Shown: piece after piece, positions 12,181-52,444 of the stretch | Layout of the letters: every line of letters begins with the position of its first letter | Numbering within the stretch: position 1 is the stretch's first letter | NCBI GenBank assembly: GCA_934096275.1 | Contig: CAKOLK010000001.1 | Coordinates: 15,876-79,875 of the forward strand | Reading direction: 5' to 3' | Source of the DNA: an uncultured Bacilli bacterium | Lineage (GTDB): Bacteria > Bacillota_I > Bacilli_A > RF39 > UBA660 | Length of the DNA stretch: 64,000 bases | Program-made: the position numbers and the translations under genes | The notes under the pieces: generated by a model | Database searches by the model: none | What the model was told of the DNA's origin: nothing | The model's input: only the letters and a program-made list of their open reading frames with translations

Positions 12181-13243
12181 TCAATCAGTAAGTTGATATG
12201 GTTGTTCCGAAGATCCATTTCCACTTGAAATCTTCACGTTAAATGAAAGACTTAGGACTGGGCGCACGGCATACTCGTTGTATTCGACGTTGCCGAAGTA
12301 GACGCTACCGTCATCATTAACAAGGAAAGCGAGGCGATCAGCTTCCGAAACCTGTGGAAGTAACCATGTAGTTACACTTTTATCTAACCAATTATTTGCT
12401 GTTTTACAATTTACAGAAGAAATATACTTATATAAACTGTTTGTACATTCTTTTGAAGCCGCATATCCATAGTCACTCGCATACATTAATGCTATTTTTT
12501 TATTTGCATCATTTTGTATTATTGGATTTGTTACATAATAATATCCTGTTCTATTTGCTTCATTTTTTCTTTCGTATTGCCACATTACATCCGATATCAC
12601 ACTTGCTTCTTTGTATCCTCCAAGATAATATTTTGTTGTTCCAATCATGTTTTTTGCATCACTTGTTAATGTATTATAATAATCATTATTTAAATATGTA
12701 TTTAATGTTCCTGTTACCCAATTGTTATACGTTTCAGTTGTTGTATCTTCTGTTTTATTCCAATATTTATTTCCTATTGAAGTATCTTTTATTATTTTAA
12801 TTCTATTTTCTACATTGCCATCTGTATCCTCGGTTGGTATTATTCCTATTATTCTCCATACTTCATTATTAAAAGTTACATAATTGTTTACATTTCCTCC
12901 ACGATATCTATACTCTGTTGCAAATCTTTCATCCACTTGAAGTGTATCATCTATTTCATGGGTTACTTTTTCTAATCCTCCTGTTCCTACATTAGATTCC
13001 GCAAAGTATAAGGCATTGTCTTTAGCTTTAACATATATTTTGATAGTATTCTTTGATTCTATACTACTACTCCATTTTGCATATGATGTATTTGTATAAT
13101 TATAAGAAATAATACCCGTTAATAAAAGTACAAAAATACCTATTAATGATAATAGATATTTATTATACTCTTTTACATCTTTAAATAAAGGGTTTATCTT
13201 ATAAGTATTTTGCCCCCCCCCCATACGAATATTTGTTTTCCAT
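12181..13243 (-). CDS. poly-G-gated surface-protein family, member 1 (short class); phase-OFF from the SD-proximal start in this assembly
   Basis: Signal anchor YLLSLIGIFVLLLTGIISYNY+TNTSYAKWSSS, then a ~280-aa domain shared with members 2-4 (TEYRYRGG..NNYVTFNNE.WRIIGIIPTEDT; KKIALMYASDYGYAAS; VRPVLSLS). GGAGG (13251-13255) lies 7 nt before the ATG at 13243. From that ATG the G10 tract reads MENKYSYGGGAKYL-stop. The long ORF is in frame only with ATG 13257 (inside the SD) or with the TATG at the tract edge. Confidence 0.8.
13213..13222 (-). repeat. homopolymeric G10 tract (C10 on the plus strand) in codons 8+ of member 1
   Basis: Counted by hand: tg-cccccccccc-atacg. Confidence 0.85.
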
Positions 13244-40866: not shown

Positions 40867-41959
40867 TTAAATCGATAGTTGATATGGATCTTCATATGTT
40901 CCAATGCCTGAAGATATTCTTACATTTGAAAAGAGAGTTAGAACTGGTAAAATGGCAAGTTCTCTTTTTCTGACATCGCCCCCATTACCAATACCACCAG
41001 TAGGACCCAAGTGAAAAACAACTCCATTACCACCGGCACATGGTGAAAGCATCCATGTAACCTGGCTCTTATCTAACCAATTATTTGGTGTTTTACAATT
41101 AATAGAAGTATCGTAGCCACTTAAACTGCCTGAGCATTCTTTTGATGCAGCATATCCATAATCACTTACATACATTATTGCTATTTTCTTACTTGCATCA
41201 TTTTGCATTATTGGGTTTGGTTTATAATAATACGCGCTTTCATATGCATTATTCTTTCTTTCATATTGCCACATCTCATTTGCATTTGCATATATATTTA
41301 TATATCCACCAAGATAATATTTTGTTGTTCCTATCATGTTTTTAGCATCATTAGTTAATGTATTATAATAATCGTTGTTTAAATATGTGTTTAATGTTGC
41401 TCCTGTCCAGTCGTTAAATTTTTTACCACTGTCATCACATTTTTCATAATCACTAGTTGTGCAATTGTTCCAAAAATATTCTCCAAGTGAATTATTTCTT
41501 ATTATTTTAAATCTATTTTCTACATTACCATTTGTGTCTTCAGTTGGTATTATTCCTATTATTCTCCATAATTCATTATTAAATGTCACGTAGTTATTTA
41601 CTACTGAGTCTCCTCCACGATATCTATATTCTGTTTTAAATCTTTCATCTACTTGTAATGTACTATCTATTTCATGTGTAATTTCTTCAAGCCCACCAAT
41701 TCCTACATTATCTTTTGCAAACGCTAAAGCATCTTTTTCAGTCTTGACACTAAGTTTTAATATATTTTTTGATTCCACACTACTACTCCATTTTGCATAT
41801 GATGTGTTTGTATAATTATAAGAAATAATACCACTAAGTAATAGCACAAAAATACCTATTAATGATAATAGATATTTATTATATTCCTTTATATCTTTAA
41901 ATAAGGGGTTTATCTTTCTAGTATTTTGCCCCCCCCCCATACGAATATTTGTTTTTCAT
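40867..41959 (-). CDS. poly-G-gated surface-protein family, member 3 (short class); phase-OFF from the SD-proximal start
   Basis: GGAGG (41967-41971), 7 nt, ATG at 41959, then MKNKYSY plus G10 gives ...GGGAKY-stop. The ORF-track protein starts at the TATG on the tract edge (41940). Confidence 0.8.
41929..41938 (-). repeat. homopolymeric G10 tract of member 3
   Basis: Hand count: gcc + cccccccc + at gives 10 C. Confidence 0.85.
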
Positions 41960-41989: not shown

Positions 41990-42185
41990 ATTCTATAACA
42001 AATATATTTCTTTTTCAAGTAAAATTTTTTCAATTTTTTGCATTTTTATATAAACAAGACTTTTGATACAAGTTTTCTTATTCAAAAATAAAAATTGCCC
42101 TAAGGCAAATCTTATTTTTGTAATCATTTTCTCTTTCAAAACTTAAAATTGGTCGTTTGACAAGTATTTTTCTTTAGTTTATAGT
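41990..42185. promoter_or_regulatory. divergent promoters (member 3 / cassette C) separated by an extra ~140-bp AT-rich spacer
   Basis: Minus strand: TTGAAA (42013-42018), 17 nt, TAGAAT (41990-41995); the palindrome is degenerate here. Plus strand: TTGACA (42157-42162), 17 nt, TATAGT (42180-42185). Confidence 0.55.
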
Positions 42186-42192
42186 GGTATTA

Positions 42193-42400
42193 GCACGTAT
42201 CTTTGGGCGCCGACTTCATTATCTTTTTAAAAGAAATGGGGTGATAGTTATGAAAGATAAGATTTTCTAATTTTAGCACTGCTTGTGATTATTTATTTAT
42301 TATTAAAGTAATTTAAAATAAATGCGACGTCTCTCTGATATAGGGAAACGTCGCATCGCTGAAAATAAACATCGAAGTCGGCGTTCAAGGAACGTGCTTC
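42193..42400 (+). other. predicted structured RNA, cassette C (the ORF has decayed)
   Basis: 5' element at 42193-42217 and 3' element at 42374-42400, with ends perfectly complementary (GCACGU.../...CGCCGACUUC). SD-region stem CUUCAUU (42214-42220) / AAUGGGG (42235-42241). Central hairpin at 42324-42354. Confidence 0.5.
42250..42270 (+). pseudogene. truncated remnant of the small hydrophobic ORF (MKDKIF-stop)
   Basis: The ATG after GGGGTGA is at the homologous position to cassettes A and B, but a stop follows six codons later. Other frames give no TM-like peptide. Confidence 0.5.
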
Positions 42401-42403
42401 TTT
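42312..42403 (-). ncRNA. predicted antisense sRNA, cassette C
   Basis: Minus-strand promoter TTGTAT (42433-42438), 17 nt, TATATT (42410-42415). The hairpin is followed by AUUUAUUUU on the minus strand. Confidence 0.4.
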
Positions 42404-42448
42404 ATATATAATATACTACTTTTAGTAGTTTTATACAAGTAATTTATA

Positions 42449-43603
42449 CTATTTATTTAACTTAGTACCTTTTAAGTTATCAAATCTTTCAAGTAAGTTA
42501 CCAGGTATAGCTTTTTGTATTTGTTCATCATCTTTTTTGTTATCTACTGCGATTGCTATTAAATCATCAAATAATTCAGTTTGATTCTTTTTCTTAGCTT
42601 TCCATAAGTATGAAGATAATGATCCTGGTATTGTATTTATTTCATTTACATAAATCTTTTTAGTCTTATCATTAATTAAAAAATCAATTCTTGCAACTCC
42701 ATTTCCATCTAATGCTTTAAATGTATTTATAGCATATTCTTTCATATCTTCGATCATTTCTTTTGATATAATTGGTTTAGTTTTGTTATCTTTTTCTTGT
42801 GTTTTAGAAAAATTGTTTATATATTTTTCTTTAAATGAATAAAAATCATCATTAGAGTTTATCTCTTCAATTTCAGATACTTCAACTTTTTTATAGTTAC
42901 CAAGTACACTTATATTTATTTCCTTTACGTCATTTACTTTTTCTTCCACTAAAATCTTCTTATCATATTTAATAGTATTTTTTACCTTTTTAAAGAAATC
43001 TTTTTCATCTTCCGCAATTTCTATTCCAATACTAGAACCTAGACTAGATGGTTTAATAAATACTGGGAACTTTAATTTAGATAATCTTTCTTGAACTAAT
43101 TTTTTATCACTTAATTCATAATTATAAAACCAAGTATAATTAACAACAGGTATATTATTAACACTCAATAATTCCTTTTGAATAACTTTATCTTGTCCTA
43201 AAGCTGCTCCAAGAACACTAGGTCCAGCATATGGTACTCCAAGCATATTTAAATATCCTTGTAAAGAACCATCTTCTAAGTATGCTCCATGTCCGATTGG
43301 TACAACTATATCAATTACACATAAGTTCTTCTTAAACATACCTAGTTTTTGTAACACAAACGATCTATCTACTTTAACTAATGCAACCTTTTTAGCATAT
43401 CTTTTTACTAAGTCAATATCTCTAAAGTTAATTATACTTTTTAAGTGTTCTCCAGTATACCAAGTATTATCTTTATCTATATAGATTGGTACTATTTTAT
43501 ACTTATTTTCATCAGCATATCCCATTGCCTCAATAGCAGAAATAATGCTTATTTCATGTTCAACACTTTTTCCTCCGAATATTACTCCTATATTTAATCT
43601 CAT
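42449..43603 (-). CDS. ddl: D-alanine--D-alanine ligase
   Basis: MRLNIGVIFGGKSVEHEISIISA, ...GEDGSLQG-like EDGSLQGYLNMLGVPY, and a C-terminal ATP-grasp (ARIDFL....K.YVNEINTIPG). Confidence 0.9.
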   Translation of the reverse strand: MRLNIGVIFGGKSVEHEISIISAIEAMGYADENKYKIVPIYIDKDNTWYTGEHLKSIINFRDIDLVKRYAKKVALVKVDRSFVLQKLGMFKKNLCVIDIVVPIGHGAYLEDGSLQGYLNMLGVPYAGPSVLGAALGQDKVIQKELLSVNNIPVVNYTWFYNYELSDKKLVQERLSKLKFPVFIKPSSLGSSIGIEIAEDEKDFFKKVKNTIKYDKKILVEEKVNDVKEINISVLGNYKKVEVSEIEEINSNDDFYSFKEKYINNFSKTQEKDNKTKPIISKEMIEDMKEYAINTFKALDGNGVARIDFLINDKTKKIYVNEINTIPGSLSSYLWKAKKKNQTELFDDLIAIAVDNKKDDEQIQKAIPGNLLERFDNLKGTKLNK

Positions 43604-44534: not shown

Positions 44535-45597
44535 TTAATCTATTGATAATTGGTATGGTTCAGAACTTGTTCCTACTCCTCCAGATATTTTTGCATTTGA
44601 TGATAAAGTTAATGTTGGGCGTATTGCATACTTATAGACACCAACATCAAAATTACTGACATTACCTGTTGAAGAAATATAAAACGCATAAATTGAATAA
44701 CTTGAATACTGTGAAAGCAACCACGTATCTTCACTTTTGTCTATCCAATTGTTTGGTGTTTTACAATTTGTATCTTGATTATATTCAGATATGTCGCTTG
44801 TACATTTCTTTGATGCAGCATATCCATAATCACTTATATACATTAGTGCTATCTTTTTAGAAGCTTCATTTTGCATTACTGGATTTGTATCATAATAGTA
44901 ATTACTTTTATTTGCCTCATTTTTTCTTTCATATTGCCACATTACATCTGATGTCATTTTTGAATCTTTATATCCTCCGAGATAGTATTTTGTTGTTCCT
45001 ATCATACTTTTTGCATTACTTGATAAGGTATTATAATATGTAGTATTTAAATATGTATTTAGTGTTGCTATTAACCAGTTATTAGAATTATCAGTGTTAT
45101 TACGTGTGCTATTCCAATAAAAATTTCCAATAGATTCATCTTTTATTATTTTAAATCTATATTCTACATTATCAGATGTATCTTCAGTTGGTATTATTCC
45201 TACCATTCTCCATAACTCATTATTAAATGTCACGTAGTTATTTACATTCCCTCCGCGATATCTATATTCTGTTTTAAATTTTTCATCTACTTGTAATGTA
45301 TTATCTATTTCATGTGTAATTTCTTCAAGTCCACCAATTCCTACATTATCTTTTGTAAACTCTAAAGCACTCTTCCCAGTTTTAATATGTATTTTGATAA
45401 TATTTTTTGATTCAGTACTGCTACTCCATTTTGCATATGATGTATTTGTATAATTATAAGATATTATTCCTGAAAGTAATAACACAAAAATACCTATTAA
45501 TGATAATAGATATTTATTATACTCTTTTATATCTTTAAATAAGGGGTTTATCTTATAAGTATTTTGCCCCCCCCCCATACGAATATTTGTTTTCCAT
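44535..45597 (-). CDS. poly-G-gated surface-protein family, member 4 (short class); phase-OFF from the SD-proximal start
   Basis: GGAGG (45605-45609), 7 nt, ATG at 45597, then MENKYSY plus G10 gives ...GGGAKYL-stop. The long ORF is in frame only with ATG 45611 (inside the SD) or the TATG. Confidence 0.8.
45567..45576 (-). repeat. homopolymeric G10 tract of member 4
   Basis: Hand count: gcccc + cccccc gives 10 C. Confidence 0.85.
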
Positions 45598-51874: not shown

Positions 51875-51957
51875 ATTTTACAACAAAAAAAGCACTTTTT
51901 CAAGTACTATTTCTTCTACTCAATAAACTTAACACATAAACAATTATTTGTTATTAT
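51875..51957. promoter_or_regulatory. back-to-back divergent promoters (member 5 / cassette D)
   Basis: Minus strand: TTGAAA (51898-51903), 17 nt, TAAAAT (51875-51880), with GTACTTGAAAAAGTGC at 51892-51907. Plus strand: TTAACA (51929-51934), 17 nt, TATTAT (51952-51957). Confidence 0.55.
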
Positions 51958-51964
51958 TATTTTA

Positions 51965-52222
51965 GGAGATGTGTTAATTGTTGGTACTCCTCTGTTCTAC
52001 TGTTTCTTAAGGGGGCAAGTAAACGGGAGTGATGTCTATGGTGAAAGGATTTAATTATGTACAGTTTGATTGCATTTTGTGTAGTTTTATTGTTACTAAT
52101 TTTGTCAATAAAACATAATGACTAGAAAAGAAGTACCAACTCAACATGAGTAGGTACTTCTTTTCTTAAAATATTCACAACATAGAACAGAGACAGTACT
52201 AATCGTCAAATTAGCATATCTC
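51965..52222 (+). other. predicted structured small mRNA, type I toxin-like (cassette D, divergent version)
   Basis: The 5' element (51965-51996) can pair with the 3' element (52186-52222) in three helices of 14, 9 and 7 bp. All 4 non-Watson-Crick pairs are G-U in the plus sense. Hairpin GAAAAGAAGUACC...GGUACUUCUUUUC lies at 52125-52165. Confidence 0.5.
52057..52125 (+). CDS. 22-aa hydrophobic peptide MYSLIAFCVVLLLLILSIKHND (candidate type I toxin, divergent)
   Basis: AAAGGA lies 7 nt before the ATG. TTGATTGCATTTTG aligns with TTGATTTGCATCTTG of cassette A apart from a 1-nt indel. An alternative 26-aa frame from ATG 52038 is much less hydrophobic. Confidence 0.4.
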   Translation: MYSLIAFCVVLLLLILSIKHND

Positions 52223-52444
52223 TTTTTTTAGTATATTCTTTTTTATATACTAAATGTGTTCGTGAATAAATTATATCTTATTTTTAATAAAATATCAATA
52301 TCACTTCAGTGATTTGTGGTATTTTACTTCAGTATTTTGTGATAATTTATTATTTCAGAAAATATATTAATTATTACACTTCTCTGTTTTGTTATTTTTT
52401 CCTTTAACAAAACTAATGAAATTATTGCATTTATCATTAGTTTT

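Follow-up and report, generated by a model that had tools for sequence, protein, structure and literature searches.

[quoted passage not shown] Binding of SR4 lengthens the helix that sequesters the SD (PMC3834814). In aapA/IsoA of Helicobacter pylori and hok/Sok of E. coli (PMC5416894, PMC6733600), antisense pairing covers the 5′ region or translation start, a 5′-3′ interaction sequesters the SD, and trimming of the 3′ end activates the mRNA. Chromosomal type I modules can be inactivated by point mutations, as for hok/Sok, and IsoA2 is conserved at locus II without the AapA2 ORF or promoter (PMC5416894). In SprG/SprF of Staphylococcus aureus, one copy has an unexpressed toxin RNA and an expressed antitoxin, and the SprF antitoxins do not cross-neutralise even at 93% identity (PMC6393307). 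Finally, par (Fst/RNA II) has an Fst-type peptide and two RNAs that interact through direct repeats at the 5′ side and use one bidirectional terminator in common.

Here we examined a cassette, termed C, in a 64,000-nucleotide stretch of DNA (the window). We consider it about 75% probable that C is a toxin-null allele, one member of a genus-specific, multi-copy family resembling type I TA systems, and that its elements look intact through exchange between copies. Judged by its sequences, the family is an uncatalogued type I TA-like system of an uncultured human-gut Bacilli genus, with a putative toxin and a predicted antisense RNA. It was found only within the genus, with 9 copies in the MAG that contains the window and 3-19 in relatives. 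Lys-rich TM peptides of 19-32 aa are encoded by 47 of 56 unique cassettes, the spacing from SD to ORF is fixed across the family, and intact alleles show coding constraint (a synonymous Leu change from CTG to TTA; TTA TTA, TTT CTA and TTC TTA variants). A search of Rfam returned nothing relevant at gathering thresholds or at E<=10, with no match at E<0.2 across 42000-42500; Pfam and NCBIfam searches at E<=10 with six peptides gave chance TM matches only, and a distant-mode search of a plasmid collection gave no match. A metagenome pattern scan for C-type ORFs returned two contigs only, one of them unrelated. Many family copies adjoin phase-variable surface-protein genes, and the divergent neighbour of C is a poly-G surface-protein gene. 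The promoter module also serves a second transcript (L012), for which an Rfam search found nothing significant.

The ATG of cassette C (42250-42252) is followed by AAA GAT AAG ATT TTC TAA, leaving a residual plus-strand ORF of six codons, MKDKIF-stop (42250-42270); direct reading of the letters thereby confirmed the broken ORF that a first, sequence-only reading of this DNA had reported. The lesion occupies 42253-42260, where, relative to the intact 20-aa MSKKD[L/F]LILALLVIIYLLLK, GT was lost and T gained to give AAGATAAGAT, a net change of -1. In the comparison with the near-clonal strain L088 it corresponds to indels at 42254 and 42258. The same reading had held that no frame yields a TM-like peptide, which is wrong: in the -1 frame, positions 42261-42311 of the plus strand (GAT TTT CTA ... 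AAG TAA) read DFLILALLVIIYLLLK-stop, an out-of-frame remnant identical or near-identical to the C-terminal 16 residues (5-20) of the 20-aa peptide in paralogs and orthologs. A TAA in the frame of the remnant (42258-42260) lies directly upstream of it. The paralogs that encode the intact 20-aa peptide are 93-96% identical to C, namely G000:C10 (96%; peptide MSKKDLLILALLVIIYLLLK) and G000:C4 (93%), hereafter C10 and C4. Thus, whereas the family has a hydrophobic ORF of less than 60 aa with its own SD, as expected of a type I peptide, C does not. With an ORF of six codons, and with the TM-coding part intact but displaced to the -1 frame, C would therefore make no toxin. As for the orthologous loci, whose comparison had been proposed as a check, the ddl-linked cassettes of three sister species and of a metagenome contig all have an intact ORF (20-aa ORFs in L013, L014, L016 and L087).

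Upstream of the cassette promoter lies a plus-strand module (42031-42156) common to C-type cassettes, including C10, C4 and relatives, which contains a small hairpin that is terminator-like on both strands (42095-42108). The promoter itself (42157-42185, plus strand) consists of TTGACA (42157-42162), a 17-nt spacer and TATAGT (42180-42185) and matches the consensus at 11 of 12 positions, in line with the earlier call; it is retained in all intact C-type copies, while its -35 is deleted in the decayed copies L040 and L041. The predicted toxin mRNA, non-coding for toxin in C, spans about 215 nt (42193-42407, plus strand), an extent deduced from the promoter, a conserved GCACGU start, a 24-bp end-to-end helix and a terminator-like stem (42381-42395) with a T-rich tail. 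In this helix, which we call the clamp, the first 25 nt (GCACGUAUCUUUGGGCGCCGACUUC, 42193-42217) pair with the 3′ arm (GAAGUCGGCGUUCAAGGAACGUGC, 42374-42397), and it is present in the MFE structure of every copy. The 3′ arm had been noted before; both arms are longer than then described.

We examined the pairings in an alignment of 35 family copies. Over the 21 clamp pairs of the alignment, 96.6% of cells are paired and 5 pairs are changed on both sides, a covariation score reached by 0 of 500 shuffles. The matched switches between C and cassette A pointed out in the sequence-only reading (U:A to C:G, G:C to A:U) hold and recur family-wide: column pair 20/230 is UA in 20 copies and CG in 11, and column pair 23/227 is GC in 11, AU in 10, UA in 3 and GU in 5. 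A further matched arm change between C and A is G.U to G:C. The stem in the SD region, likewise noted earlier, is supported in the same manner. CUUCAUU (42214-42220) pairs with AAUGGGG (42235-42241) in a plus-strand hairpin (42214-42241) that sequesters the SD of C (GGGGTG, 42238-42243), and over its helix (columns 24-30/47-53) 98.3% of cells are paired with 2 pairs changed on both sides. At the level of the alignment, this covariation supports the pairings of both the SD hairpin and the clamp.

The CUUC of the SD hairpin doubles as the inner end of the clamp, and the following switch can be proposed. In intact copies, a sigma-70-type promoter would drive a 215-240-nt mRNA for a Lys-rich single-TM peptide. 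The nascent 5′ end would fold first, into the hairpin in which the SD is buried; when transcription has reached the 3′ end, the 24-bp 5′-3′ helix would capture the CUUC strand and raise predicted SD accessibility by about 1000-fold (median predicted P(SD free) of 0.01 in the full-length mRNA and 7e-6, or about 1e-5, with the 3′ part removed). The SD hairpin is accordingly predicted to form when the 3′ part of the mRNA is absent or blocked, and it provides, in silico, the translation-limiting mRNA structure of a type I system.

Next we examined the antisense side. The central hairpin (42324-42354), correctly located by the earlier reading, has a 13-bp stem in the folds, and the minus strand then continues into AUUUAUUUU; 99% of cells are paired and 3 pairs are changed on both sides, which supports the stem. 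In our model it would be the terminator of an antisense RNA, the predicted antitoxin, which would be about 88 nt long (42315-42402, minus strand) and consist of a 5′ stem-loop, a linker and the terminator hairpin. The linker (42355-42373) is hypervariable and unpaired in MFE structures, and it is likely to be the specificity determinant of antisense-mRNA pairing: C agrees with other C-type copies at 5-7 of 17 positions, except for C10 (16/17) and the ortholog L013 (17/17). The putative antisense promoter, TTGTAT-17-TATATT (42410-42438, minus strand), lies within the most conserved block of the family (42401-42438) and is found in every copy as well as in orphan modules that lack the toxin. It matches the consensus at 8 of 12 positions, below the threshold of the consensus scan, and its status as a promoter rests on conservation. 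The sequence-only reading had called an antisense promoter here, and that call was not confirmed. The conserved TTGTAT-17-TATATT block, the 13-bp hairpin with its minus-strand U-tract and the fold kept in orphan modules speak for the candidate antisense RNA, and the score of its promoter below the scan threshold speaks against it.

From this in silico promoter and terminator geometry, the two predicted RNAs converge with a 3′ overlap of about 88 nt (42315-42402), and the antisense RNA would cover the 3′ arm, the variable linker and the central hairpin. Its binding would dislodge the clamp, sending the SD back into its hairpin, and the long duplex formed with the mRNA would be a possible RNase III substrate. 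If both its promoters fire, C would still provide an antisense RNA near-identical to that of the live paralog C10. The antisense region of C is identical to that of C10 at 74 of 75 positions, compared with 55 of 77 for cassette A and 51 of 77 for cassette B, whose linkers are unrelated. An orphan-antitoxin role of C is possible, and its partner would then likely be C10 rather than A, B or D. The cross-protection against A, B and D that had been suggested is unlikely given these identities and the unrelated linkers, and "cassette D" (about 51929-52230) was rejected as a family member, being no homolog.

We then compared C with its near-clonal counterpart. Strain L088 is 99.76% identical to the C locus over 6,753 bp, and 13 of its 16 differences fall inside a 260-bp patch (42099-42358) whose left edge, with the first difference at 42099, lies in the upstream module. 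In L088 this patch equals the sequence of C10, and the toxin ORF of the locus is intact, which indicates gene conversion. Furthermore, between L126 and L124 all 29 of 29 differences lie 5′ of ORF codon 6 and are followed by 2,834 identical nt. Paralogous cassettes would thus swap patches of 0.26-0.4 kb fast enough for the effect to show within a clone, through either crossover or gene conversion. Conversion may have run in either direction, as repair in L088 or as inactivation in this genome. For a possible reciprocal swap in the near-clonal strain, searches for exact copies of SufB, of LepB and of two neighbours, taken from the C10 contig, returned nothing. C itself carries zero private substitutions, and its RNA elements look perfect because of this and of patch exchange between cassettes. 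For the same two reasons retention in C is uninformative on selection, and the retained RNA elements are not evidence of selection on the RNAs. Decay of a TA locus would in addition be asymmetric, toxin-killing changes being tolerated and antitoxin-killing ones not, as long as other copies are live.

The same null allele was found in at least 4 populations or species, at 2 loci and with 4 downstream haplotypes. Its carriers besides C are L015, L090, L126 and, in decayed form, L040 and L041. L126 repeats, in another population, the arrangement of family gene, null cassette and ddl seen around C. At the sufB locus the allele is rare, with 28 of 29 cassettes intact and 1 of 29 null in the sampled set. 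Elements are decayed in several of these carriers: L015 has its SD changed from GGGG to GAAG, L126 has ACACAU in place of GCACGU at its 5′ end and an A for a G in the arm, and L040 and L041 have lost the -35, the SD and the ATG, so that SD, 5′ clamp, promoter or ATG is gone in other null carriers. The proposal of a recently inactivated toxin is supported and can be sharpened. The allele itself is not young, given that its lesion is also found in other species and at a second locus; recency applies to whether a particular locus carries it or lacks it. That an allele so wide and old should be purely neutral or deleterious is somewhat surprising, and selection for an antitoxin-only copy could account for it.

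The two decayed copies carry three clamp pairs changed on both sides with pairing kept, which hints at some RNA or DNA helix constraint after loss of coding. By hand calculation the inner helix on its own gives a p of about 0.018, which becomes about 0.095 once the broken outer helix is counted, and we accordingly downgraded these compensatory changes as proof of selection. We also rejected the idea that L040 and L041 keep the antisense promoter preferentially: the block holds only 6 G/C sites, decay is biased from GC to AT, and 1 of 6 such sites changed there versus 20 of 47 elsewhere.

Against the reading of C as a null allele exchanged among copies stands, foremost, the proposal that the allele is kept for a peptide-independent antisense RNA or RNA pair, which could buffer live C10, serve as an anti-addiction copy or affect the poly-G surface-protein gene that lies divergently. 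We regard this as unlikely, though not negligibly so. The spread of the allele over two loci and four or more populations or species, the near-identity of its antisense RNA to that of intact C10 and the precedent of IsoA2 as an antitoxin without toxin ORF (PMC5416894) speak for it, as do five 5′-truncated antitoxin-only modules that retain the antisense fold (two of them, L042 and L055, at the same locus in two species) and the canonical 3′ halves of L015, L090 and L126, where sense-specific parts decay in L015 and L126. However, the allele is rare where sampled (the 1 in 29 at sufB), the lack of private substitutions allows no inference on selection acting on C, conversion restores or removes the lesion within one clone, and the antisense hairpin and -10 region are decayed in L055, L040 and L041; in the latter two, A+T content explains why the antisense promoter seems to be retained. 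In SprG/SprF, moreover, antitoxins are as a rule specific to their cognate toxins, without cross-talk (PMC6393307). Survivorship bias, in which the toxin must die first, would give the same picture. A related and decidedly doubtful scenario is a recombination-driven on/off system, in which a null 5′ half circulates among loci and species through gene conversion and crossover inside the cassettes, toxins toggle within clones, and null copies are kept by selection at low frequency as additional anti-addiction antitoxins against near-identical live paralogs.

The remaining explanations bear on the DNA and on the peptide. A MITE-like repeat without an RNA device, its 24-bp terminal inverted repeats matched by DNA-level processes, would account for the multi-copy, ~0.3-kb elements with 24-bp inverted ends, for cassettes acting as recombination breakpoints and for matched arm changes in the non-coding L040 and L041. 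We hold it to be very improbable: covariation is also seen in two local hairpins, one of them over the SD, the conserved ORF varies synonymously and keeps its SD at a fixed spacing, the promoters are conserved outside the inverted repeats, and arm sequences differ among copies in one genome, which is disfavoured under a shared transposase. The inverted ends are thus present together with an ORF under coding constraint, and the earlier caveat that a DNA inverted repeat might mimic covariation is answered in part by the covarying SD and central hairpins and the synonymous ORF changes. That C still makes toxin by recoding is scarcely credible. If tRNA-Phe slipped by -1 at the stop codon (A UUU UCU AA), the product would be MKDKIFLILALLVIIYLLLK (20 aa), of the same length and TM sequence as the intact toxin, and the null alleles differ from one another by changes that are synonymous or conservative when read in the TM frame but non-synonymous in the ATG frame. 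Yet the UUUUC run occurs in C only (UUUCC in L015, UUUAU in L090, UUUCU in L126), and frameshift rescue was rejected because the slippery run is not kept in other null alleles. Furthermore, a stimulatory element is not evident, other null carriers are without SD or ATG, and the TM-frame haplotypes are shared with intact alleles, so that recombination explains the pattern. Re-initiation at the AUU overlapping UAA, the other route, would yield a 14-residue peptide without a charged N-terminus. An assembly artefact, with the frameshift or the ddl placement produced by short reads mis-threaded through 96%-identical paralogs, is extremely improbable. In its favour, stretches of about 67-70 nt that match C10 exactly flank the patch, the null allele in other species is often at the sufB locus, and the genome is a 66%-complete MAG; on the other side, the lesion is present in at least four independent assemblies and L126 repeats the gene order in another population, and mis-threading was rejected after the contig of an independent k=141 assembly (L100) proved to match the window at 100% identity across 7,309 bp.

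Taken together, these results call for caution: a broken ORF beside perfect RNA elements in a multi-copy family does not show selection on the RNAs, because gene conversion and toxin-first decay yield the same picture. The locus also offers a natural experiment, with near-clonal strains in which a 260-bp patch toggles the toxin ORF and a null allele found at several stages of decay. The predicted switch, in which clamp and SD hairpin compete for one strand, is testable in laboratory hosts.

Compared with known systems, the family has the Firmicute type I layout of the B. subtilis systems, in that a predicted mRNA encodes a small hydrophobic peptide and a convergent antisense RNA overlaps the 3′ end of this mRNA in silico. 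Initial contact via the terminator loop or single-stranded regions is plausible here too, and antitoxin binding is predicted to raise SD sequestration at a distance, as has been shown for SR4. The family, known from its sequence, differs in lacking peptide or RNA similarity to these systems (no Pfam, NCBIfam or Rfam match), and hence is no member of the BsrG/TxpA group by sequence; it also differs in its shorter peptides (20-32 aa), in a 24-bp clamp of the mRNA ends, one strand of which is also used by the SD hairpin, and in its many chromosomal copies next to phase-variable surface-protein genes. It is set apart from par by the absence of an Fst-family match, by separate terminators and by complementarity in the 3′ UTR. 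As in SprG/SprF (PMC6393307), several paralogous pairs with overlapping 3′ ends reside in one genome and raise the question of cross-talk between paralogs; unlike the 93%-identical SprF RNAs that do not cross-neutralise, the antisense RNAs of C and C10 differ at 1 of 75 positions and would be effectively the same RNA. With aapA/IsoA and hok/Sok (PMC5416894, PMC6733600) the family shares a long-distance 5′-3′ interaction in the full-length mRNA (the 24-bp helix, in every copy), predicted co-transcriptional hairpins that hide the SD, and multiple chromosomal copies, some killed by point mutations or rearrangements. In contrast to both, the whole of its predicted antisense RNA maps 3′ of the ORF and overlaps the 3′ arm, and its clamp is predicted to compete with the SD hairpin instead of forming it. 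The closest precedent for cassette C is IsoA2 without AapA2.

Cassette C (42157-42438) carries a near-consensus toxin mRNA promoter on the plus strand (TTGACA at 42157-42162, a 17-nt spacer and TATAGT at 42180-42185; 11/12 matches in the scan), followed on the same strand, as read from the sequence, by the conserved GCACGU start at 42193 and the Shine-Dalgarno (SD) sequence GGGGTG at 42238-42243. The ATG at 42250 is followed by AAA GAT AAG ATT TTC TAA, so the sequence-only reading of MKDKIF-stop was correct. It was wrong to deny a TM-like peptide in every frame: the -1 frame from 42261, GAT TTT CTA ATT TTA GCA CTG CTT GTG ATT ATT TAT TTA TTA TTA AAG TAA, encodes DFLILALLVIIYLLLK-stop, with an in-frame TAA (42258-42260) just ahead of it. 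Relative to the closest copies, C has lost GT after ATGA and gained one T, a net change of -1 (AAGAAAGAT to AAGATAAGAT).

The window's MAG (856 kb in 22 contigs, 26% G+C, 66% completeness) contains nine full copies of this family; two of them, on contigs C10 and C4, share 96% and 93% identity with C, respectively, and both encode MSKKDLLILALLVIIYLLLK. Of 40 relatives screened, only the six further genomes belonging to the genus have the family (3-19 hits each). When all GTDB species were scanned for an exact 28-mer, every match was to a MAG of uncultured Bacilli, and Hadza gut samples were the main source. Searches of Rfam, Pfam, NCBIfam and plasmids gave nothing relevant to the cassette family. 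ORFs of 19-32 residues are intact in 47 of the 56 unique cassettes collected, and their peptides have a Lys-rich N-terminus followed by a single hydrophobic stretch. Alleles differ synonymously (Leu CTG to TTA; TTA TTA, TTT CTA or TTC TTA), which shows the peptide to be under coding constraint.

In the minimum-energy fold of every copy, the first 25 nt pair with the last 24 nt ahead of the T-rich tail, forming a 24-bp clamp (arms at 42193-42217 and 42374-42397 in C). In the 35-sequence alignment used for pairing and covariation counts, 96.6% of clamp cells are paired and five pairs have changed on both sides; no shuffle out of 500 scored as high, and slid controls were 35-45% paired. The SD hairpin (CUUCAUU/AAUGGGG in C, CUUCGCU/AGCGAGG in the paralogous cassette A) and the central hairpin (42324-42354) together have 98.8% of cells paired, and here too both partners of five pairs have changed. 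The matched arm changes between C and A that had been noticed earlier are real, and are one case of this family-wide covariation pattern. Clamp and SD hairpin share the four bases CUUC, so the two structures compete. In an ensemble calculation, the median probability that the SD is unpaired is 0.01 in the full-length mRNA, and it drops to 7e-6 with the 3′ part absent or occupied.

Several related elements were observed alongside these cassettes. At G000:C8:11649-11910 (L009), a copy in the same MAG, the TM-coding part has lost 21 nt in frame, which leaves the 19-aa peptide MSRKNDMIFILLIIIYRLI (26 aa in its G004 counterpart, L050) and the outer clamp has two mismatches, A.C and C.C; this is possibly a second weakened toxin. 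Outside the window, G000:C1:149088-149242 is a weak, distant relative without an obvious ORF; it has GAAGCUGAUAG...CUAUCAACUUC and a sequence resembling an SD, GTGAGATGAT, and its 3′ block, TATAGTATACTACTTTTATG...TTGTACAAG, is similar. On the minus strand of G000:C3:46100-46400 (L012), a C-type upstream module (terminator hairpin GCCCTAGGGC, then TTGACAGG...TATAGT) and promoter drive a different, ORF-less sequence whose ends also pair (GACAUUUAUUUAUUGGC with GCCAAUAGAUAAAUGUC); the promoter module appears to be a portable one, here placed on another RNA with clamped ends, and Rfam gave no significant match to this sequence. Five 5′-truncated antitoxin-only modules (L027, L042, L055, L051 and L060) retain just the antisense half, from the promoter block through the 5′ stem-loop and linker to the terminator hairpin, and keep the antisense fold, although L055 is in decay; L042 (G004) and L055 (G006) occupy the same locus in two species. 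The supposed fourth cassette, D (~51929-52230), was rejected as a family member: this unrelated module, non-homologous to cassettes A-C, encodes the 22-aa peptide MYSLIAFCVVLLLLILSIKHND with its own SD and has a GC-rich stem, AAGAAGTACC...GGTACTTCTT, downstream. In L051 (G003), the orphan module is preceded by a relative of the 3′ region of D. The divergent family genes adjoining cassettes A, B and C carry poly-C runs at their 5′ ends (41926-41940, 13216-13226 and 33830-33845; poly-G when read on the coding strand), and at each cassette the family-gene promoter stands back to back with the toxin promoter.

C has no private substitutions, each base being common to at least one other C-type copy, and is a mosaic: its 5′ arm and SD are as in the C10 and C4 copies and a ddl-linked ortholog (L087), its ORF patch is as in L015, and its hairpin and linker are those of the G004 ortholog L013, from which the 3′ arm differs at one position. 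A contig of a near-clonal strain from another sample (L088) encodes an identical Ddl protein and is 99.76% identical to the window across 6,753 bp. Of its 16 differences, 13 fall within 42099-42358, where it has the C10 allele and an intact ORF. This patch represents a gene-conversion tract of 260-395 bp in an otherwise clonal background. Repair of L088 from C10 would need only a donor already in the genome, and either state may be the derived one. The remaining three differences cluster at 45480-45543, where the second poly-G family gene has its 5′ part, and probably represent a further short conversion tract between paralogs. Because of the conversion tract and the lack of private substitutions, retention of the RNA elements in C is no evidence of selection; their perfection reflects recency and concerted evolution.

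The same lesion is found elsewhere: in L015 (G002, rplS-sufB locus; MKDKIS-stop, SD GGGG changed to GAAG), in L090 (sufB locus; MKDKIY-stop, 1/10 contigs in that population), in L126 (ddl locus of another population; MKDKIS-stop, 5′ end GCACGU changed to ACACAU, with a G-to-A mismatch in the 5′ arm) and, in decayed form, in L040 (G001) and L041 (G006), with the -35 and SD deleted, ATG changed to ATA and many GC-to-AT changes. Cassettes at the sufB locus are intact in 28/29 cases, and those at the ddl locus of other species have intact ORFs. Four haplotypes are found downstream of the lesion, and all but one, TTCCTA of L015, were also seen in intact alleles; this suggests that recombination has occurred repeatedly immediately 3′ of the lesion. 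Furthermore, all 29 differences between L126 and L124, whose Ddl proteins are identical, lie 5′ of ORF codon 6 and are followed by 2,834 identical bases; the upstream flanks differ, so the cassette itself is a crossover point. The three ddl-locus contigs L124, L125 and L126, with the same Ddl protein, differ in cassette allele (an intact C-type, one from another subfamily, MSKKDFLIFSLLIIIYLLLFHIMR, and the null) and have two kinds of upstream flank (rplS/lepB or a poly-G family gene), so the cassettes act as crossover points for chromosomal rearrangement.

Continued production of the toxin from C by recoding is unlikely, as is an assembly artefact; assembly error at the C locus is ruled out by L100, a k=141 assembly from another accession with the same null state and 100% identity to the window across 7,309 bp. 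An orphan-antitoxin role for C is possible. The proposed antisense promoter (minus strand, TTGTAT-17-TATATT) is present in the conserved block 42401-42438, but it is a weak match that the scan did not call. A minus-strand transcript from there would cross the 3′ arm and linker and stop at the central hairpin, after which comes AUUUAUUUU; its length would be ~88 nt. The linker separating this hairpin from the 3′ arm, which the folds leave single-stranded and which is hypervariable from copy to copy, is thus the likely specificity determinant. In the antisense-covered region C is identical to C10 at 74/75 positions and to C4 at 63/75, compared with 55/77 for A and 51/77 for B, whose linkers are unrelated to that of C. 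Cross-protection against A, B and D, as had been suggested, does not agree with these values or with D being an unrelated module; if the predicted antisense C has a partner, it would be C10. SprG/SprF toxins were not neutralised by non-cognate antitoxins (PMC6393307).

Decay of the RNA elements in orthologs, which the sequence-only reading had set as a refuting outcome, is seen in part: sense-specific elements have decayed in other carriers, but the antisense half is canonical in L015, L090 and L126. Such asymmetry is expected of any TA locus, where loss of the toxin has to come before that of the antitoxin, and also under conversion, so this pattern is no proof of a new function. The inner clamp helix of L040 and L041 keeps perfect pairing through three double changes (p ~1/56), but the outer helix is broken and its inclusion gives p ~0.1. 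The intact antisense promoter block of L040, considered as a sign of constraint, is accounted for by the block's A+T richness.

The overall reading is that C represents a toxin-null allele in circulation, from a new TA-like family of type I that on sequence belongs to none of those described. The family's layout is closest to the 3′-overlapping Bacillus systems, in one of which SR4 destabilises the bsrG mRNA and also lengthens a helix that sequesters the SD (PMC3834814). The 5′-3′ clamp recalls aapA1 and hok, in which, unlike here, it is the 5′-3′ interaction that conceals the SD, and the antisense RNA works on the 5′ end (PMC5416894). Toxin-dead copies with the antitoxin kept are already known, examples being IsoA2 without AapA2 and the chromosomal hok and aapA copies inactivated by point mutations (PMC5416894).
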